From Myxococcota bacterium (GTDB lineage Bacteria > Myxococcota_A > Polyangia > HGW-17): a stretch of DNA of 64,000 bases. A model generated the notes under the pieces. It saw only the letters and a program-made list of their open reading frames with translations. It had not been told where the DNA came from and did not search any database. Shown piece by piece: positions 4,196 to 62,084 of this stretch. Within the stretch, counting starts at the first letter, position 1. Each line of letters opens with the position of its first letter. A program made the position numbers and the translations under genes. The stretch covers positions 44,106 through 108,105 of the forward strand of contig JAHJMN010000131.1 in the NCBI GenBank assembly GCA_018821305.1, written 5' to 3'.

Positions 4196-4405
4196 AATAA
4201 TTCTCCATAACAACAATTTGCAAAAAACAATTAAAAACAATTGCTTACTGTTACTGCTTTGAGTAAAAATCAGCGAAAAAATTGGAAATTTGGTATTTCA
4301 GGACATTAACTGGATAATAAGTGTGACCCTTCTGGGTATACTTATGAAAGCAGTGATAATATTTTTAATTAAAAGAAATGTACAGAATATTCAGGATACA
4401 GAGGC

Positions 4406-4968: not shown

Positions 4969-5155
4969 GGAAAAAAAGAATTTATTAAAATTTCTTATAG
5001 GTCATTACAATTTATTAATCACTAAGTAGATCGTGTACTGAAATTCAATTTTTATCAAAATTGAGCATGTTTATGAAAACATGCTATTCGTGCCTGTAAT
5101 TTGCTTCGCGAAGAAATTTATTAAAATTTCTAACAGGCTACTACAATCAATTCAA
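4969..5155. repeat. two ~45-bp AT-rich direct repeats (AATTTATTAAAATTTCT.A.AGG..A.TACAAT) plus a 9-bp-stem hairpin AGCATGTTTATGAAAACATGCT
   Basis: Copies are at about 4975-5020 and 5110-5155, with the hairpin at 5065-5088. They lie in the 590-bp gap between the wHTH regulator and membrane-protein genes. Confidence 0.65.
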
Positions 5156-5329
5156 CAATTTCGTTCTCAAATTTCCGAAGAAAACAATGCCCTTCCATAT
5201 TGATTTGCTAACCAAATCGCCTCGAAAATTCTGAAAAGAACACGTTTCAAAACTGTGACACAATACAGCATGTTCTATGGTTCAATTACCCTGAAACTGC
5301 AAACCCAGTTGATACATAAAAGTGATTGA

Positions 5330-28312: not shown

Positions 28313-28575
28313 TTTTTCATCCGGAGGCAGATGTCACCAATGGATCAGGTTATATAACGGGACAAACTTGTTGCCATCTCCATAGTTTCATATAGTTTAC
28401 TGTAATGTTTCTGGCAAACAAATAGTAATACGAAATAAAAAACCATACCACAGTATTGAATTTTGATCCCATAAAGTGCATTGTCCCTGTTTGCCTGGAT
28501 AAAGAGAAAAACTCTCAGGCAAGGTCAATTTCTATTGTATTAGAGTAAGTATTTATATTCAATGGAGAAATTAAA

Positions 28576-35106: not shown

Positions 35107-35270
35107 ACATAAGGATTTTATTACAGAGGAGCCTGTTAGAGATTTTAATAAATTTCTTCGCGAAGCGAATTACAGGACACGAACTATTTACAAGATACAA
35201 CCTCAGGTTAAAGCCCCTGATTGTACTGTTACTGTTACTGCTACTGATTACCTGTGCCCTGATTGTTTTT

Positions 35271-35455
35271 AACAGGGAATCAGGAAAACAGGGAATCAGG
35301 AAAACAGGGAATCAGGAAAACAGGGAATCAGGAAAACAGGAAAACAGGAAAACAGGGAATCAGGAAAACAGAATCAGGAAATCAGGGAATCAGGGAATCA
35401 GGGAATCAGGGAATCAGGGAATCAGGGAATCAGGGAATCAGGAAAACAGAATCAG
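35271..35455. repeat. compound microsatellite: (CAGGGAATCAGGAAAA)~5 then (ATCAGGGA)~8
   Basis: Direct reading shows 16-bp and then 8-bp perfect tandem units between the convergent 3' ends of the hybrid-kinase and Sel1 genes. The repeat generates spurious ORFs 35103..35477 and 35263..35586. Confidence 0.9.
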
Positions 35456-35534
35456 GAGCAGCGGGAGTTTACTTTGAAGGGAAGTGTTTTTGTGGCATCA
35501 AAACGAGTGACTATCTTATTACTAAGGACAGTAA

Positions 35535-36983
35535 CTATTTACAAGCGGGATTTGTGGGATCAATAAGGCATCCTTTTTTAATGTAATTTTTCGCCGCGGT
35601 TTCATTTTTATAAAAATATGGGCCGCTTATCCGGTGGGCTTTTGCAGCGGCAAAACAGCTCGGGGCATGACCAAGGGTACAGAAAGACTTGATTTTCATA
35701 GCAAAAGTAGAATCAATTGTGAAAAGCTTTTTCTCAATACCAACATCCAGGAGAGCGGCACAGGCATCCGCATGATTGTTTTTGCATGACGCCATTGCAA
35801 GAGAAACGCCGGTTTTTTCGTCTCCGTCGGTGGCGGTTTTTGTAATATACATAATTCCAAGAGCTCCACAAGCCTGCCCATTTGTGGGGTACTTCTGGTT
35901 CTGGTAACTATAATGACGGTAACGATAATATCGGTATCTATTGTAATTGTTAGATTTATAGCATTTTGAATAGAGCAACTTAGCTGCGGACGCAGGATCT
36001 GCTTTCATCCCGATACCGGTGGCCATTGCCTGAGCATAGTGAACACAGCCATTCTCACTGCCCATGAAGCAACTGCGCCGGAAAATATCAGTTCCTTTAT
36101 CTTTATCTCCAGTTTGAGTAAATGAAATACCCAGTTCAATGCATGCATCATCCTCTCCCTTGATGCAGTTATCTTTGAGTATCCGATGGGCCTCGTCGCG
36201 ATTTTTAGTTCCAAACCACGCCCCCGTAAGAGCTTTTGCCTGGAATATACATGCTCGTCGGTAACCGGTTTGACATAGAGTTTTAAGGGAATCATAGTAG
36301 GAGATGGAGGATTTGAAACTCGTCAATCCCGATAATATCAGTCGAAAACTGTTAAGACATCCCGTATGATGACCATAGCGACAGGAAAGCAAATAATACT
36401 CTATGCTTTCAGACATTTGTCTTCTTCGTTCTCGCAGCGTAGCCGCCATTTCACAACTGAGAGCACTTTTTGCACGACAACCGGCGGTATATATTCCCTC
36501 AAGGGTCGCAGTGTCAAGTCGGAGAAATCCAATCCGGTGGATATTATTTCTCAACTCATCACACCACTGCCGATTTCCCTTACGACAAAGGTCATAACTG
36601 TAGTTGAAAAAATCACGAAATTGGTCCTGAGAAAGTCCACGTGAGAGTTCGGTAGTATACAGGAGTTCGCATCCCCATGAGATTTTCTTTGAACATATGT
36701 TTTCAGTGATATTTATAAGATGAGTTCGTTTTTCATAATCGGTATTAAGGGGGATAATATCAGTAAGAATAGATTTCAGGCTATCACAGGCTTGTTGATT
36801 ACCTTTAAGGCATTCGGAACTGTAAATATCAAGGCTACGGGAATTGTTTTCTTTTTCATATTTTTGAGCACATGCGATGGAAGCGGAATTGGCGCAATCC
36901 ACTGTTTTAGGCTGTGTGCCATCAGAGTTCTTAGAGCATGAAATAAAAATAAAAAGCAGCCCGACTGAAAGAAATCTATACAT
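35535..36983 (-). CDS. Sel1-like repeat (Helicobacter cysteine-rich protein-like) lipoprotein
   Basis: Lipobox (FIFISC). Many repeats with paired Cys about 36 aa apart, such as 'QACGALGIMYITK...DACAAL', are typical of Sel1/Hcp beta-lactamase-like repeats. Confidence 0.75.
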   Translation of the reverse strand: MYRFLSVGLLFIFISCSKNSDGTQPKTVDCANSASIACAQKYEKENNSRSLDIYSSECLKGNQQACDSLKSILTDIIPLNTDYEKRTHLINITENICSKKISWGCELLYTTELSRGLSQDQFRDFFNYSYDLCRKGNRQWCDELRNNIHRIGFLRLDTATLEGIYTAGCRAKSALSCEMAATLRERRRQMSESIEYYLLSCRYGHHTGCLNSFRLILSGLTSFKSSISYYDSLKTLCQTGYRRACIFQAKALTGAWFGTKNRDEAHRILKDNCIKGEDDACIELGISFTQTGDKDKGTDIFRRSCFMGSENGCVHYAQAMATGIGMKADPASAAKLLYSKCYKSNNYNRYRYYRYRHYSYQNQKYPTNGQACGALGIMYITKTATDGDEKTGVSLAMASCKNNHADACAALLDVGIEKKLFTIDSTFAMKIKSFCTLGHAPSCFAAAKAHRISGPYFYKNETAAKNYIKKGCLIDPTNPACK

Positions 36984-37147
36984 TTAAAACCCCTTCCGAG
37001 GATATGATCCTGAATTTATTATCTACTGCTCTCGTTGTAAAGTACAAAACCTGACTTTATAAATTTGTATTGATTAAAGTGAACCTGTCGCTGATTATTA
37101 TTTTGTATCATCAATTTATTATCCTTGGATTTGAGTAAATGTTTCTG

Positions 37148-37300
37148 ATCCTGATTTTTTTAGCAGGGATTCAGGAAGTCAGGAAAACAGGGAACAGGAG
37201 TCAGGGCGTAAACATTCAATATCAATAAATAATTACAAAAAGACACTGCTTTTAACTCACTTTCCAGATTTCGATCCTTATTATTCAAAAGCGGTTCTGG
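37148..37300. repeat. dispersed CAGG-rich element copy, in the divergent promoter region between the Sel1 gene and pfk
   Basis: 'CCTGATTTTTTTAGCAGGGATTCAGGAAGTCAGGAAAACAGGGAACAGGAGTCAGGGCGTAAACATTCAATATCAATAAATAATTACAAAAAG...TTTCCAGATTTCGATCC'. Confidence 0.75.
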
Positions 37301-37385
37301 TTGCCAAAACCAAGATCTAAAATAATCGTGTAAATAATTTTCAAAGTGGTAATATACGGCGAACTTTTTGAGGAGGTACTTTACC

Positions 37386-41992: not shown

Positions 41993-42239
41993 GACGATTC
42001 TCCTTTGTGCGGATTTGAGAGGAATAACCACTAATTAGTTTTATATCCGAACAGGAGTAGCTTTACTATCGGCCTGATGACCGATTAGACTGCTTGCAGA
42101 GTAAAACGATAGTAAAACTATTAATTACAAATAGATAGGGATTCTGGGAAACAGGGTCAGGCAAAATACTTCTAAATCCTTTAGTGACATAAATTGAAAA
42201 GGTGGCTATACTTTGTTTTCAGCGAAAGGGTGTTTATCC

Positions 42240-45200
42240 ATGAAAAAACAATTCGGATTCCAGATATTTGTGTCCCTGTTTTTATCTCTGCTTCTTTCCA
42301 GTGGGTGTGACGACAGCGGTGAAAAAAACGATGAATGTGCTTCCGGATGCCTGATTGAAGGTATTTGCTATCCTGACGGAGTTATAAACCCTTCTAATTC
42401 CTGCCAAATCTGCAATCCTGGTCTATCAGCGGATAACTGGTCTGATCATGAAGGTAGTTGCGACGATGGTTTGTTCTGTACGGTAAACGACATGTGCACT
42501 GCCGGAGTTTGTGAGGGCACCGAACGAATTTGTGATGACGGCATAGCCTGTAACGGCAGTGAAACCTGCGATGAAGAAAATCAGATCTGCACCGTTGGAA
42601 CACCTGAGTGTGACTCCGGGACTTTGTGTAATCTGGAGACAGATACCTGTGTTCAGACCTGCACCGGGTGTGCAATTTCCGGAATCTGCTACGGAAACGG
42701 TCAGATTAACCCCGCCAATCAGTGTCAGATCTGCGATCTGGTTACAAATGCTTCTGACTGGACCAGCCGCGACGGCGAAAGCTGCGACGACGGCCAGTTC
42801 TGCACGGTAAACGATGCATGCAGTGCCGGAGTTTGTGAGGGATCTGCCCGCAGTTGTGATGACGGTATAGCCTGTAACGGCAGTGAAACCTGTAATGAAG
42901 ATACGGACAGTTGCTCTAGTGGAACAGTCACCTGCACCGGCGGTGCCATGTGTGATATTGCTACGGATAGTTGTCTTTTTGCCTGTAATGGCTGCATTAT
43001 AAATGAAATTTGCTACGGTCACGGAAGCATTAACCTTTTAAATACATGCCAGATTTGTGATATGTCTCAGAATTCAGTTGGGTGGACAGATCGCGATGGG
43101 GCAAGCTGTGATGACGGTCTCTTCTGCACGATAAACGACACGTGCTCAAGTGGTGTATGTCAGGGATCTGCCCGTCCATGCGACGATGGTATTTCCTGTA
43201 ACGGAAGCGAAAGTTGCGATGAAACCAGCGATTCGTGCATTGCCGGAGTAACTACCTGCGAAAGTTCCGAGCTTTGTGAATTGACAACGGACAACTGCGT
43301 TCAGATGTGCACCGGGTGTGCAATTTCTGGAATCTGCTACGGAAGCGGTCAGACAAATCCCGCAAATCAGTGTCAGATTTGCGATCCCATTACAAATGAT
43401 TCCACCTGGACCAGCCGCGACGGCGAAAGCTGCGACGATGGCCTTTTCTGCACGGTAAATGATATGTGCGCCTCAGATATATGTGAAGGTACGCCCAGGG
43501 TATGCGATGACGGCATAGCCTGTAACGGCAGTGAAAGTTGTGATGAAGGCTCAGACACCTGCACGACAGGGGTAACAACCTGCGAAAGTTGGGAACTTTG
43601 CGATATGACTGCCGACAGTTGCGTTCAGACGTGCACCGGCTGTGCAATTTCCGGTATGTGCTTTGGAAGCGGCCAGATAAATCCGGCAAATCCCTGTCAG
43701 ATCTGCGATACTGTAGCGGACTCTTTTGCCTGGACCGATCGCATTGGAGAATCCTGTGATGATGGCGTAAACTGCACTGAATCGGATATGTGTGAAGGTG
43801 GCGGCATCTGCATGGGCACTGCTCTGGCTTGCCTGACGGATCGTCCCTGTATGGAAAACACCGGTTGCACTGAAGGATCCGGGTGCGGTGAGGTAATGAA
43901 TCCTGCCTGTGCCATGGATATCCATTGTGCCGATATCTGCACTGAAATCGGTGATACAGCCAAGTATTTTATTTATGAAATTTCTCCCGCAGAATTATCC
44001 ACTTCTGGTGGGGAGCTTGTAACGCTAAAAGGTTTCTTCGGTGATGGTTCAGAAGTGACCATTATCGCTGGGGGCATTTCCGTTCCTGTCCTGAGCGCCA
44101 ATTCAACTACGGTTACCTTCAGTGCTCCTGAGGCAAGCACAGATCTTGATCTCGTAATTACAGGCCCTGGTGGGGCACCGGTTGTGCGAGTTTTCAATGA
44201 ATATAATTACGGAGTTCCATATTATGTAACGTCTTCTTCCATGTCCCTTGTGTATCTTGCACCGGTGGTAACCACTGTTGAGGGGTGTAGTAATATTGGT
44301 TCAGAAGGAGTTACAGTAGATTGTGAAAAAGACGGGGGCATACCCATTCTGGTCACCGGTATGAATTTCGGAAATGATCCATCGAACCTTACAGTTCTTA
44401 TTGGGGATACCGAGTGTCAAGAGTTGGCGTTGGCAGATTATCATACTCGGATTTATTGTAACATTCCTCCTATGCCTGAAGGCGACTGGATTTTCAACGT
44501 AACGGTTATAAGGGATGGCAAGTCCGGAGTTAAGGAAGGTGGTCTGTCCTACGCAGGACCGTATATCGCTGAAGTTTTCTATAATGATGATGTTGACCCC
44601 GCTGGAGGAAGTATGCTGGAACTGCGAGCAGGCAACATAAGTTTACCTCCGGACACATCGGTATGGATCGGGCCAACAGGCACTGAAAATGAGTGTTTAA
44701 TTCTGGGGATCTTTTCCGATACAATACGATGCATAGTTCCTGCCGGGGCTGGAGTTGGTCATGAAATTAGAGTAAAAACTGGCAACCTCTGGTCCGAACC
44801 GGCACCGGTATTTTTAAATTACCGACTGCCGACAATTCAACCGGGCAGCCTGACTCCTGATCCCCTTATTCCCGGCGGTCTGATTCTTCCTTTACCGACA
44901 TATCCTGCTCAGGTTTACTTCCGGGTGGATGATCTTCCGACACTTTATGATACAGTAAATATTACTTATTATGATGGAATTAACTCCAATATCTGTCATT
45001 TCCCCGAGCTCACAGCAAACTCCTTATCCGAACCCATGGTTGGGTGCTGGATATTTGGCAATCTTTCTTCCGATGGTGCTGTCATGGGAGATTCTTATTT
45101 TTCAATCTCCGTTTGGGGTGCAACTGTTAATGGTACAGACATGCTCCAGTTTGGCATTCCGCCCCAGATGGCGACGTTTTCCGGTTGCGTTGATGACGGA

Positions 45201-45719
45201 AGCGGCAATACCGGGTCATGCCCCACGGAAGGTGGCAATACAATTACCGTAACGGGAAGCGACTTTTCCTCATCCATGCAGCTTGCGGTAAACGGAATTA
45301 CGACGGCTTACAATCTGATTTCTTCCAATGAAATCACCTTCACCATGCCCCAAGGCACTGGATATGCCAGTGTTCAAATCATCCTTCCATCGGGGCTGCT
45401 CTCCGCCGCCGCCGCGATTTCATACACCAGACCCGTAATTGATTCTGTACAAGGATGCCCTTTTACAGTTGGAAATACAACACACGGTTGTCCTGTGACT
45501 GGTGGAACAGTAATTACCATAAACGGAAGTGATTTCGGCTCATCCGGAGCAGAAGTGTTAATCGACAAAAATCAATGTACAGGTGTTTTGCATGACGCCC
45601 TGACGCCCCATCGCCGCATTACCTGCATACTGCCTCCGGGCACAGGACTGGAAGTTCCCGTAACCGTAAAAGCCGGAACCTTCACCAGCGATCCCGCCCG
45701 CCTCTCATACTTGCCGTAA
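42240..45719 (+). CDS. giant surface lipoprotein/adhesin with five tandem Cys-rich modules of about 107 aa and C-terminal IPT/TIG domains
   Basis: Lipobox (LLSSGC). Modules 'C.GC.I.GICYG.G.INP.N.CQICD...W..RDG.SCDDG.FCT.ND.C..G.C.G..R.CDDGI.CNGSE.C' recur about every 320 bp from roughly 42340 to 43900. IPT-like blocks 'IYEISPAELSTSGGELVTLKGFFG' and 'ITVTGSDFSSS' follow. Confidence 0.7.
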   Translation: MKKQFGFQIFVSLFLSLLLSSGCDDSGEKNDECASGCLIEGICYPDGVINPSNSCQICNPGLSADNWSDHEGSCDDGLFCTVNDMCTAGVCEGTERICDDGIACNGSETCDEENQICTVGTPECDSGTLCNLETDTCVQTCTGCAISGICYGNGQINPANQCQICDLVTNASDWTSRDGESCDDGQFCTVNDACSAGVCEGSARSCDDGIACNGSETCNEDTDSCSSGTVTCTGGAMCDIATDSCLFACNGCIINEICYGHGSINLLNTCQICDMSQNSVGWTDRDGASCDDGLFCTINDTCSSGVCQGSARPCDDGISCNGSESCDETSDSCIAGVTTCESSELCELTTDNCVQMCTGCAISGICYGSGQTNPANQCQICDPITNDSTWTSRDGESCDDGLFCTVNDMCASDICEGTPRVCDDGIACNGSESCDEGSDTCTTGVTTCESWELCDMTADSCVQTCTGCAISGMCFGSGQINPANPCQICDTVADSFAWTDRIGESCDDGVNCTESDMCEGGGICMGTALACLTDRPCMENTGCTEGSGCGEVMNPACAMDIHCADICTEIGDTAKYFIYEISPAELSTSGGELVTLKGFFGDGSEVTIIAGGISVPVLSANSTTVTFSAPEASTDLDLVITGPGGAPVVRVFNEYNYGVPYYVTSSSMSLVYLAPVVTTVEGCSNIGSEGVTVDCEKDGGIPILVTGMNFGNDPSNLTVLIGDTECQELALADYHTRIYCNIPPMPEGDWIFNVTVIRDGKSGVKEGGLSYAGPYIAEVFYNDDVDPAGGSMLELRAGNISLPPDTSVWIGPTGTENECLILGIFSDTIRCIVPAGAGVGHEIRVKTGNLWSEPAPVFLNYRLPTIQPGSLTPDPLIPGGLILPLPTYPAQVYFRVDDLPTLYDTVNITYYDGINSNICHFPELTANSLSEPMVGCWIFGNLSSDGAVMGDSYFSISVWGATVNGTDMLQFGIPPQMATFSGCVDDGSGNTGSCPTEGGNTITVTGSDFSSSMQLAVNGITTAYNLISSNEITFTMPQGTGYASVQIILPSGLLSAAAAISYTRPVIDSVQGCPFTVGNTTHGCPVTGGTVITINGSDFGSSGAEVLIDKNQCTGVLHDALTPHRRITCILPPGTGLEVPVTVKAGTFTSDPARLSYLP

Positions 45720-45766
45720 GGCACGGTGGAAGCAGGAAAGCAAGCTTGGGTAATTCCATCAACCTG

Positions 45767-45943
45767 AATGACCACACCCCTGAATCCGAATTCGATGTTG
45801 AATGAACGGATCATAAAAGCGTTCGTAGACCGCCTATAGTTAGCCCAGGGTTTTAACCCTGGGATCGGTGCCGGGGTAATCACATAGAAGTAAATGACCA
45901 CACCCGTGAATCCTCATGCGATGTTGAACCCGCAGACCATGAG
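45767..45943. repeat. two ~49-bp direct repeats (AATGACCACACCC.TGAATCC...CGATGTTGAA...) flanking a 77-bp segment containing hairpin CCCAGGGTTTTAACCCTGGG
   Basis: DR1 is at 45767-45815 and DR2 at 45893-45943. A third partial copy 'TCGATGTTGAATCCGCAGACC' lies at 46091-46113. The perfect 8-bp-stem hairpin is at 45844-45863. Confidence 0.8.
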
Positions 45944-45960
45944 CCTGTGCCCAAAGATTG

Positions 45961-46115
45961 CCTGTTCCTGATTACCTGATATTTAACAGGGACTCAGGTA
46001 GTCAGGCAAACAGGATCAGGAACAGGGCGTAAATATTCAATATCAATGGAATATTACAAAGACTGGAAGCAAATATTCACTTTTTAGTTTTCGATGTTGA
46101 ATCCGCAGACCAGCC
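45961..46115. repeat. dispersed CAGG-rich element copy
   Basis: 'CCTGTTCCTGATTACCTGATATTTAACAGGGACTCAGGTAGTCAGGCAAACAGGATCAGGAACAGGGCGTAAATATTCAATATCAATGGAATATTACAAA...GAAGCAAATATTCACTTTTTAGTTTTCGATG' aligns base-for-base with the 46625 copy. Confidence 0.8.
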
Positions 46116-46148
46116 TTTCCCCCTTTCCTGCGCCGCCGTAGTTGACGG

Positions 46149-46480
46149 GTCGGAACCAAAGGTGGAATGAAAAATCAACCGGGTCCGCGCGACATGGCGT
46201 GAGGTGGAATGAAAAATCAACCGGGCCCACGCGACATGGCGTGAGGTGGAATGAAAAATCAACCGGGTCCGCGCAACGCTGCTCGAGGCAAGACGAAAAA
46301 CAACCACTTCCACGCAACGCAGCGCGAAGCCGGACGAAAAATTACCAGGTCCGTGCAAGATGGCGCGAGGCCGGACGAAAAACAACCGCATCCACGCAAG
46401 ATGGCGCGAGGCCGGAAAAAAAATTACCCGGTCCGCGCAATACGGCGTGAGGTGAGATGAAAAATGAGCCGGTTCCGCGC
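46149..46480. repeat. GC-rich 41-42-bp tandem repeat array, about 8 units, consensus GGTGGAATGAAAAATCAACCGGGTCCGCGCGACATGGCGTGA
   Basis: Units 1-3 are near identical and later units diverge, conserving only the 'GAAAAA(T/C)' core and terminal 'GCG(T/C)GAG'. Head-to-tail without spacers. GC is far above the local background. Confidence 0.85.
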
Positions 46481-46542
46481 TATTATTAATATTTCTTTTT
46501 ATCAGATAAAATTTGAAAATAGGATGAACGATCCTTATACTC

Positions 46543-46564
46543 TGCAAGCGGTCTAGACCGCTTC
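46543..46564. repeat. near-perfect palindrome GCAAGCGGTCTAGACCGCTTCC (shared terminal module of the dispersed element)
   Basis: Preceded by 'CGATCCTTATACTCT', as in the copies at 46770 and 61775. It could form an 8-9-bp-stem hairpin and may act as a terminator. Confidence 0.7.
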
Positions 46565-46624
46565 CTGAGTAATACGATTGTGAGTTATTCTAAAGAAAAT
46601 CTTCAGGAGAAAGACCCTGAATGT

Positions 46625-46802
46625 CCTGTTTCTGCTACTGATTTCCTGTGTTCCTGAAATTTTAAACAGGGACTCAGGAAGTCAGGCAAACAGGGACAGG
46701 CGCAGGTCATAAACATGTAATATCAATTTAAAATTACAAAAACTTGAAGCAAATATTCACTTTTTAGATTTCGATCCTTTTACTCCGCAAGCGGTCTAGA
46801 GG
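46625..46802. repeat. dispersed CAGG-rich intergenic element, most complete copy (ends in GCAAGCGGTCTAGA palindrome half)
   Basis: 'CTGCTACTGATTTCCTGTGTTCCTGAAATTTTAAACAGGGACTCAGGAAGTCAGGCAAACAGGGA...ATATCAAT...AATTACAAA...GAAGCAAATATTCACTTTTTAGATTTCGATCCTTTTACTCCGCAAGCGGTCTAGA'. Confidence 0.8.
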
Positions 46803-47518
46803 GAGGGGGAATCCGGGGAATCGGGTTTTCTTTTTCGACTTATGCGGGATCGCTGATTTGCTAAAGCTGTGAAAAAGTCGGCAAAAACTGCTGCTGCTCT
46901 TTCTTCTCCCTTCAAAACAAGTACCGTCGACCACACGGCTTTTATTGCGTTATCCAAATCGGGAATTGTTGCTTTCATCGTAACTGGCTTTGCATCCATT
47001 GCGGCATTACGTTTTTCGAGATTTTCTAAGAAAACATCATTGGAGTTGCGGATAGCATCCACAAAAGGGCCAAAGTTTAAATTTGATATGCGGGGGGCAA
47101 CTTCCGGAGTTGAAAGAAATGCGAGACGTTCATTTAAAATACCAGTTTCACTTATGTAAGATTCCTTGAGGAATCCAAACCCATTGGGATTTATGCGTTC
47201 GAGGATAAAAATGGCATCTTCTCCTTTGTCGCTTCCCGGAAGCATAGCAAAGGATTCAAGATAGCTGCATGCAGCACGAAATGCGTCATCGCGAAGCTCT
47301 TCAAGTTGGGTAAGTTCTTCCGTAAGGGATTTTTCATGTCTTGGAACGAGGGTTGAAATGGTATTGTTTGCCCGTAGTAAAAGTTCGTCTGCTAAAGCTT
47401 TAATTGAAGGATCTTCGGGCCAGGTACTGAGACAGTTTTTTGCGGCATTTAAAGAAACTTGTGCTTTTTCAACGGAATTGAGTATAGAAACTGCTAATTT
47501 AAACATAGTTAAATCCAT
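46796..47518 (-). CDS. hypothetical protein, downstream of phoU
   Basis: 240-aa helical ORF whose stop codon lies inside a dispersed-repeat copy. Confidence 0.45.
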   Translation of the reverse strand: MDLTMFKLAVSILNSVEKAQVSLNAAKNCLSTWPEDPSIKALADELLLRANNTISTLVPRHEKSLTEELTQLEELRDDAFRAACSYLESFAMLPGSDKGEDAIFILERINPNGFGFLKESYISETGILNERLAFLSTPEVAPRISNLNFGPFVDAIRNSNDVFLENLEKRNAAMDAKPVTMKATIPDLDNAIKAVWSTVLVLKGEERAAAVFADFFTALANQRSRISRKRKPDSPDSPSL

Positions 47519-50990: not shown

Positions 50991-51010
50991 TACACAAGCC
51001 TTTCATCCAG

Positions 51011-51133
51011 TTACTGTCCTGAAATACAAAAAATCAAATTTTTAGCCGATTTTTTTGCTCAGGACAGTAAGAGCAAGTTGCTCAATTTATTGTAGTGTCC
51101 TGTTATGACTTTTAATAAATCCTAACAGGACAC
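51011..51133. promoter_or_regulatory. pstS-pstC intercistronic stem-loops (12-bp and 11-bp perfect inverted repeats)
   Basis: TTACTGTCCTGA (51011-51022) pairs with TCAGGACAGTAA (51058-51069). GTGTCCTGTTA (51096-51106) pairs with TAACAGGACAC (51123-51133). Confidence 0.7.
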
Positions 51134-61739: not shown

Positions 61740-61740
61740 A

Positions 61741-61990
61741 AAAACATTTAGTCTTTTCAAATTTCGATTACTCCGAAAGCGGTCTATACCGCTTGCAGAA
61801 TAAAATGATCGAAATAAGAAAATTGAATCAAAAATTACGTTCTTTTTAATTATTAATTGATATTGAATGGTTACGACCTGTTCCTGAACCTGTTTTCCTG
61901 ACTTCCTGATTCCCTGCTAAAAAATCAGGAAATCAGTAGCAGGAACAGGAAAACAGGGGGCCTGCTGCTGCCCCTGATTTCCTGAATGCC
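61741..61990. repeat. dispersed element copy: palindromic 3' module plus CAGG module in inverted orientation
   Basis: 61765-61800 'TTTCGATTACTCCGAAAGCGGTCTATACCGCTTGCAG'. 61868-61912 'CCTGTTCCTGAACCTGTTTTCCTGACTTCCTGATTCCCTGCTAAAAAATCAGG' is the reverse complement of the 37148 copy. Confidence 0.75.
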
Positions 61991-62084
61991 TGTCTACCTG
62001 TAGTTAATAAATAGTGTTGTATTTATTAATTATTTTACTTGAAAATTCGCTAACCGATCAGCATTGGGTCTAGTTTTGGATTTT

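Follow-up and report, generated by a model that had tools for sequence, protein, structure and literature searches.

Small dispersed repeats are common in cultured bacteria and seldom described in uncultured lineages, where they appear mostly as contig breaks. The Correia elements (CREE) of Neisseria are about 100-155 nt long and intergenic, give rise to hairpin RNAs, contain a central IHF-binding region, lie in many cases near gene ends, and are bounded by terminal inverted repeats of 26 bp with a TA target duplication. In the pneumococcal BOX elements (boxA-boxB(n)-boxC) the internal units vary in number; these elements are known from a single species together with its closest relative, and Croucher et al. 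(2011, PMC3049150) concluded that they are probably parasites that now move slowly. In Porphyromonas gingivalis, the BrickBuilt MITE (miniature inverted-repeat transposable element) places leader and tail subunits around an internal, spacer-less tandem array (Klein et al., 2015, PMC4596501). Here I describe a family of palindromic, CAGG/CCTG-rich intergenic repeats in a stretch of 64,000 nt (hereafter the window), positions 44,106 to 108,105 of contig JAHJMN010000131.1 in assembly GCA_018821305.1, from an uncultured bacterium that carries the NCBI label 'Myxococcota bacterium' (its genes have locus tags in KKF34_ and KKD49_). The family is a genuine feature of an ordinary kind, REP-like and lineage-specific, and it resembles known intergenic repeats. 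I consider it probable that this is a REP/BIME/BOX-like repeat, non-coding, modular and palindromic, that is restricted to one lineage and is now largely neutral.

A nhmmer profile made from four full copies recovers all four (E 1.9e-44 to 4.6e-51) and also detects a partial copy at 35.2 kb (E 4.5e-09). The 28-nt core CAGGGANTCAGGNAGTCAGGNAAACAGG has four exact matches in the window and none in 100 shuffles, and both the palindrome and a 22-nt linker block recur where none would be expected. A repeat finder joins 37146-37193, 45969-46016 and 46649-46696 with an inverted segment at 61889-61924, in arms of at most 114 nt. By the profile E-values and the core, linker and palindrome counts, the family and its three modules lie essentially where a preliminary description of the window had placed them. 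That description spoke of seven or more gaps; dispersal is borne out, but the solid copies occupy four gaps only (35107-35534, 36984-37385, 45720-46795 and 61740-62084), three of them convergent and that of c37 divergent. The full repeat is 170-250 nt long, non-coding and multicopy, with four full copies and several partial ones in the window; every copy is intergenic, and both orientations are present. The members of the family, with the tandem arrays beside them, are as follows.

35203..35270, plus strand: c35, 5' module only, a small hairpin (TCAGG-N8-CCTGA) and then a CTG/CCTG left arm and loop; nhmmer E 4.5e-09.
35271..35457, plus strand: microsatellite from the CAGG arm of c35, units CAGGGAAT and AACAGGGAATCAGGAA (Tandem Repeats Finder).
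37125..37319, plus strand: c37, a full copy whose 3' hairpin is degenerate, located upstream of PFK in a divergent gap; E 4.7e-46; 100% identical in contig L001.
42080..42165, no strand assigned: doubtful relic, an 18-21-nt hairpin-arm piece, AATTACAAA and a few CAGG units in scrambled order; E 6e-04 to 0.6 (tiny database); missed by the nhmmer profile.
45945..46118, plus strand: c45, 5' module and linker, its 3' end reading CCGCAGACC; E 1.9e-44.
46128..46480, no strand assigned: minisatellite of eight 41/42-nt units in tandem, between c45 and c46b.
46509..46585, plus strand: c46b, 3' module only, its long hairpin complete around GCAAGCGGTCTAGACCGCTT (repeat and palindrome matches).
46602..46798, plus strand: c46, full 5' module and linker, 3' hairpin cut; E 4.6e-51.
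61757..61985, minus strand: c61, the most complete copy, in a convergent gap; E 2e-46; 100% identical in contig L083.

The last of these had been read, at 61741-61990, as having its modules in inverted order. Read on the minus strand it is a full copy like any other: the long 3' hairpin occupies 61757-61812, the linker runs from 61813 to 61880, and the CCTG/CAGG hairpin follows at 61881-61985. Of two short core hits proposed earlier, that at 28470-28485 does not belong to the family: it is a 16-nt exact match (28470-28500) with a local hairpin in a 90%-conserved divergent gap, where the matching bases differ in the sister species introduced below. That at 42128-42150 is doubtful and amounts to 18-21-nt fragments with marginal E-values. 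Expansion of the CAGG sub-motif into a microsatellite, first placed at 35271-35455, is confirmed at 35271-35457, as 21.5 copies of period 8 or 11.9 copies of period 16 with 92% matches. In total about ten pieces are spread over 31 kb (35 to 66 kb). The GC content of the window, 40.7% overall, steps from 36-40% (1-36000) to 44-48% (38000-60000); all family copies lie at or after the step, and there are none in 1-28 kb.

In the orientation of the 46.6-kb copy the modules run CCTG/CAGG hairpin, A/T-rich linker and hairpin of about 56 nt. The small TCAGG-N8-CCTGA hairpin forms the 5' border in c35, c46 and one copy beyond the window, and no sequence upstream of this border is common to the three. 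In the long 5' hairpin a TTTTAA-type loop separates a left arm made of CCTG/ACTG/TCTG units from a right arm made of CAGG units, and in each arm the units recur every 8 nt. The number of these 8-nt units varies from copy to copy and between species: a standard copy has four CAGG units, the arrays more than 20. The linker, about 70 nt long, reads ATTCAATATCAAT-N7-AATTACAAA ... TTCACTTTTTAGATTTCGATCC, and the 3' hairpin has outer arms ATTTCGAT/ATCGAAAT and a 22-nt core, GCAAGCGGTCTAGACCGCTTGC. A promoter scan gave no promoter-like site common to the copies, and candidate sigma-54 and IHF sites in the linker were rejected on inspection by eye.

The family extends beyond the window in the same genome, contrary to the outcome (no copies elsewhere) that would have refuted the preliminary description. 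A second metagenome-assembled genome (MAG) of the host organism, GCA_018820545.1, runs 2.1 kb past the window end, and at least three additional pieces lie 1.8-2.3 kb from that window end: two copies fused tail to tail via a single shared palindrome (L083 12880-13185), a half hairpin that ends at GCAAGCGGTCTA (GGTCTA), and a CAGG array where the contig stops. Two independent assemblies (Logan SRR2544012; GCA_018820545.1) agree with the window at every base of c37 and c61, and the elements are thus not assembly artefacts. Other assemblies terminate at the microsatellite, where Logan contig L001 ends at 35469, and at 46.6 kb, as is expected of short-read assembly at multicopy DNA; how long the array is, and in what order the parts of 45.7-46.6 kb follow one another, is therefore known from this assembly alone and is less secure. 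Such contig ends are what can be said for an assembly artefact or plain low-complexity similarity as the source of the whole family, an explanation that is barely credible in view of the identical copies, of a linker and palindrome that recur without being low-complexity, and of diverged copies in a sister species.

The sister species is represented by five contigs from SRR32001354, with about 88% nucleotide identity (some 85-91% in genes). At the c61 locus it has a copy in the same orientation from which 88 nt, comprising the 3' hairpin and a portion of the linker, are missing, and whose opposite arm has grown into a 24-nt-period CAGG array. Upstream of EcsC, family sequence is found in both species, arranged differently; there the contig of the sister terminates in a (GTCAGGGA)n array. 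Since these two gaps are occupied in both species, the family is older than the species split. Over 88 nt of right arm and linker the paralogues are just 82-90% identical, which argues against a recent burst. To each of the copies the sister copy shows about 81% identity, its positional orthologue being no closer; this fits exchange between copies or turnover in an old family, and either may contribute. The ordinary gap at 28.3-28.6 kb is 90% identical between the species, and by this comparison the family changes faster than ordinary intergenic DNA, the visible changes being expanded arrays and deletions. At the PFK locus, homology with the sister begins at window position ~37319, directly 3' of c37, and the upstream gene differs; c37 is absent there, at what is a synteny break and no clean empty site. 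The 67 nt conserved at PFK include TGGTAATAT, an extended -10-like motif noted by eye, so that the PFK promoter is probably independent of the element.

Two low-GC relatives, GCA_016937155.1 (PFK 83% identical at the amino acid level) and a JGI contig (77%), keep the gene order PFK-SmpB-RsbRD_N-MBL-fold, and neither of their PFK loci (21 kb and 14 kb) contains a family element or comparable repeat. Of 80 PFK loci from species-representative genomes most are distant, and the closest (75% identity) are of high GC content (61-67%) and without elements. Among 185,579 species-representative genomes none matches the core pattern, and viral contigs have matches neither to the core nor to the palindrome. 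In JGI metagenomes the one match to the core pattern is an unrelated (TTCCTGNN)n low-complexity run on a 55%-GC contig. Distant-mode BLAST with c46 returned no plasmid match, and Rfam gave no match at the gathering threshold, raising E to 5 yielding only hairpin-type microRNA matches far below it. The label of lineage-specific, given in the preliminary description, is therefore upheld: the core is absent from the public genome and viral sets, and the element is absent at the loci of two relatives and present in the sister.

Three side results of these searches may be recorded here. The A/T-rich linker pattern had 83 viral-contig matches, set aside as chance (nhmmer E >=0.8). The metagenomic (TTCCTGNN)n run (L002 430-520, ERZ795053 NODE-50600) has an 8-nt period and lies directly upstream of the start codon of an apparent (by eye) cation-efflux gene. 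In one of the relatives, the 875-nt gap upstream of PFK holds a 130-nt G+C-rich, structured-looking segment (L172 9750-9880) with no Rfam match at E up to 0.01.

On the sense strand the copies fold strongly relative to shuffles (z -5.6 for c46, -7.9 for c61), and this strand folds better than the antisense in 6/6 5' modules, by 8-11 kcal/mol in four of them, which implies G-U pairs. One alternative reading is that selection keeps the element as a cis-acting RNA structure in 3' untranslated regions (UTRs), and in some 5' ones, where it would block convergent read-through or protect mRNA 3' ends, as has been shown for some REP/BIME copies in E. coli. The convergent setting of three of the four solid gaps, hairpins that start 0-85 nt past stop codons, the strand bias, the two gaps occupied in both species and a hairpin kept in diverged sister copies all point this way. 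I nevertheless regard selection for such a structure as rather unlikely. The G-U pairs are common to the paralogues by descent, so that the 6/6 bias is a hint of RNA-level constraint and no proof, and does not represent six independent events. The consensus fold of the six modules has a covariation term of +1.83 and one compensatory pair, which is no covariation support, the copies being too few and too similar to provide it. Neither hairpin is followed by a U-tract (after the 3' hairpin comes CCTGAGTAAT or TCGGAGTAAT), and the sole report of a terminator scan was the small TCAGG-N8-CCTGA hairpin with a weak T-rich tail. Moreover, the sister c61 locus has lost its 3' hairpin and gained no replacement, other copies are truncated or fused, and one gap is divergent.

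The CsrB repeat is CAGGA(U/C/A)G, and the core found for CsrA by systematic evolution of ligands by exponential enrichment (SELEX) is ARGGA; the units CAGGAAG and CAGGGAA fit both. Among five paralogues the right arm, with the 28-nt CAGG core, is near-invariant and better conserved than the variable left arm, and the expanded arrays are purine-rich and unstructured and have grown independently in two species. These properties would suit a multivalent binding platform, in which CAGG(G)A sites spaced by 8 nt would serve a CsrA/RsmA-like RNA binder or a DNA-binding protein. I hold this to be very unlikely: CAGG units are paired in stems, not exposed in loops, in standard copies and become single-stranded only in the expanded arrays; there is no CsrB/Rsm or other meaningful Rfam match at E up to 5; the elements have no promoter or terminator of their own; the core spacing is not kept in the sister orthologue; and an 8-bp period is off the DNA helical repeat. 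A regulatory version, in which CAGG(G)A units in 3' UTRs titrate a CsrA-type RNA-binding protein that recognises GGA/CAGG, is a long shot. If it were true, array length, which differs between the sister species, would tune that regulator, and the sponge would be spread over mRNA tails rather than encoded by a dedicated small RNA gene. Unless CAGG arrays bind a regulator, the family opens no long-standing question.

Many copies have lesions at the centre of the long palindrome or close to it. Both c46 and the half copy on L083 stop within 2 nt of the dyad axis, c46 with its breakpoint between GGTCTAG and AGGG, and the CTA at the palindrome centre of c46 provides the stop codon for the DUF6261 gene on the minus strand (46796-47518). 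The CCGCAGACC of c45 looks like the palindrome minus its central 9 nt, the tail-to-tail fused pair is missing 14 nt of one arm, and the 88 nt missing from the sister copy at the c61 locus cover the hairpin. Long palindromes are unstable in bacteria and central lesions are the expected pattern; the family is a clear case of it.

The family had been described as MITE/REP-like, and the second half of this label is apt: the copies are extragenic, palindromic and mosaic, and assemblies break at them. The strict definition of a MITE fails, since the ends are not inverted repeats of one another and no consistent target-site duplication was found. When the first 45 nt are aligned locally with the reverse-complemented last 45 nt, five copies give scores of 4-9 (shuffles: mean 5.3-6.6, maximum 10-12), and the longest flank matches, 4-8 nt, differ between copies with fuzzy boundaries, so that no duplication of shared length emerges. 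Only c45 is bracketed by a 21-nt direct repeat, GATGTTGAAyCCGCAGACCA, at 45918-45940 and 46093-46114 (also at 45795-45815). Because part of CCGCAGACC resembles the family palindrome minus its central 9 nt, these 21-nt pieces may be the 3' ends of older copies and not a target duplication.

Elements moved by HUH/Y1 enzymes have subterminal hairpins and neither terminal inverted repeats nor target duplication. A non-autonomous single-stranded DNA transposon, moved by an HUH/Y1 enzyme that recognises hairpins (RAYT or a TnpA of the IS200/IS605 type) and is encoded elsewhere, would share with the present family a hairpin at each end and the absence of terminal inverted repeats, and would suit the failure to find a target duplication, the breaks at the palindrome centre in two copies, the dispersal in both orientations and the lack of c37 upstream of PFK in the sister. 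I still find it improbable. No conserved tetra- or pentanucleotide lies beside the 5' ends (the flanks are AACC, ATCT and GATT), the divergence among paralogues leaves no room for a recent burst, and the c37 case is a synteny break. A Pfam scan of 40 open reading frames (ORFs) in the window found no transposase or integrase domain, and no Y1 transposase gene, RAYT included. Other classes were considered and dropped: an integron attC site, retron msr/msd, a CRISPR array, a Chi or uptake sequence, and the array as coding sequence. There is no integrase, reverse transcriptase or cas gene, the copies have housekeeping neighbours and lie in both orientations, and a period of 8 nt breaks the reading frame.

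A largely neutral repeat of the REP/BIME/BOX kind thus remains the explanation that I favour. The copies differ from one another in three ways: expansion of the 8-nt array in either arm, lesions clustered at or near the centre of the long palindrome, and one tail-to-tail fused pair. The arrays of 8-nt units would have arisen through replication slippage, and the copies would have spread in the past by a mechanism acting in trans and would now persist as largely neutral DNA. When co-transcribed, a copy would add two strong stem-loops to the neighbouring transcripts, and these could alter 3'-end stability or read-through as a by-product. Several observations weigh against this account. The sequence examined yielded no mobilising enzyme, empty site or target duplication, and mobility is thus deduced from dispersal alone. 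The better folding of the sense strand and the better conservation of the CAGG core than of the opposite arm hint at a strand- or sequence-specific constraint, which one would not expect if the repeat were purely neutral. Retention in the same gaps of two species could reflect selection and not inheritance. Finally, the view of copy number is limited to about 66 kb of the host genome and about 25 kb of the sister species.

The family accounts for the fragmentation of three assemblies of the host organism at identical places, and it marks sites at which gene order and intergenic sequence differ between the sister species. It could also act as a strain marker, and length polymorphism is to be expected in the 8-nt arrays.

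The host was recovered from deep groundwater; one matching read set, SRR2544012, is cited by a study on deep terrestrial subsurface biofilms (PMC5364579). The genes beside the copies are housekeeping genes, among them those for a hybrid histidine kinase, PFK, SmpB, two metallo-beta-lactamase-fold proteins, a Flp pilin, an IPT/TIG protein, PhoU-pstBACS, an alpha-2-macroglobulin, a GNAT protein and RtcB. An orphan Cys-rich gene of 482 aa (35535-36983, minus strand) is bracketed by c35 and c37. Among 5.8 billion proteins its product has no close homologue besides itself, the other match being 23% identical (E 5.9e-8), and no homologue of it or of the GNAT protein was found in the sister species. 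As the gene is not beside PFK in the sister or the two relatives, the c35-c37 segment looks like a variable islet. The IPT/TIG-domain gene (42240-45719) has at least four tandem 324-nt (108-aa) repeats at 42456-43777. On the minus strand at 45827-45863 a small hairpin (CCCAGGGTTTTAACCCTGGG) gives a sub-threshold match to the Acido-Lenti-1 RNA (23.9 bits vs a gathering threshold of 37, E 0.006), probably by chance. The units of the 41/42-nt minisatellite between c45 and c46b are 60-94% identical and non-coding, and are followed by an A/T-rich stretch at 46481-46530; no conserved hairpin was found among the 41-nt units, and, 42 bp being four helical turns, the units could conceivably act like iterons, a role that is unsupported.

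A second small family is dispersed over the window; its consensus is CCTGTAATT.GCTTCGCGAAGAAATTTATTAAAATTTCTAACAGG, also given as CCTGTAATT.GCTTCGCGAAGAAATTTATTAAAATTTCTAACAGGC.ACTACAAT, and the repeat finder lists four copies.

4977-5021: second-family copy.
5093-5161: second-family copy.
35127-35176, reverse complement: second-family copy.
51075-51123, reverse complement: second-family copy.

Together with a further dispersed segment (4277-4315 / 51005-51043) it forms two strong hairpins between pstS and pstC (z -7.3). The pst intercistronic hairpins of the preliminary description are thus real, but their supposed relation to the CAGG family is not, for this second family shares with it only the CCTG/CAGG stem feet.

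How, then, does the CAGG family compare with the systems described elsewhere? It differs from the Correia elements, whose terminal inverted repeats and target duplication were tested for here and not found, and its linker sequence ATCAA-N7-TTA misfits the IHF consensus WATCAANNNNTTR. With the CsrB/RsmZ sponge RNAs it has in common many closely spaced CAGGA-type motifs, but these are mostly paired, the copies are truncated and scrambled, and there is no Rfam match and no promoter or terminator of their own. Among published systems BOX and BrickBuilt come closest to it. BrickBuilt is also dispersed and intergenic, and its architecture may be compared with c35 plus the 8/16-nt array, and with c45 plus the 41-nt array plus c46b. 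It differs in having small inverted-repeat ends, a 23-nt unit in every copy and promoter activity (PMC4596501), whereas most copies here are without an array, their ends are not inverted repeats and they have no common promoter-like site. BOX is likewise modular, intergenic and of narrow host range, is extensively structured and has internal units whose number varies; the likeness is by analogy only. The variable unit here is 8 nt (vs 45 nt) and makes both hairpin arms, no relation in sequence is apparent and the host is a Myxococcota-labelled MAG. From the REP/BIME elements (REPIN; Enterobacteria, Pseudomonas) the family differs in its unit of 170-250 nt (vs ~35 nt), in its 8-nt-periodic arm and A/T-rich linker, and in sequence, which shows no similarity. 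Like them, however, it is species-restricted and non-coding and would form stem-loops upon co-transcription, and it consists of extragenic palindromes combined into mosaics in both orientations, including tail-to-tail pairs. The mosaic character is plain in the fused pair at L083 12880-13185 and in the gap at 45.7-46.8 kb, which is a nest of modules.

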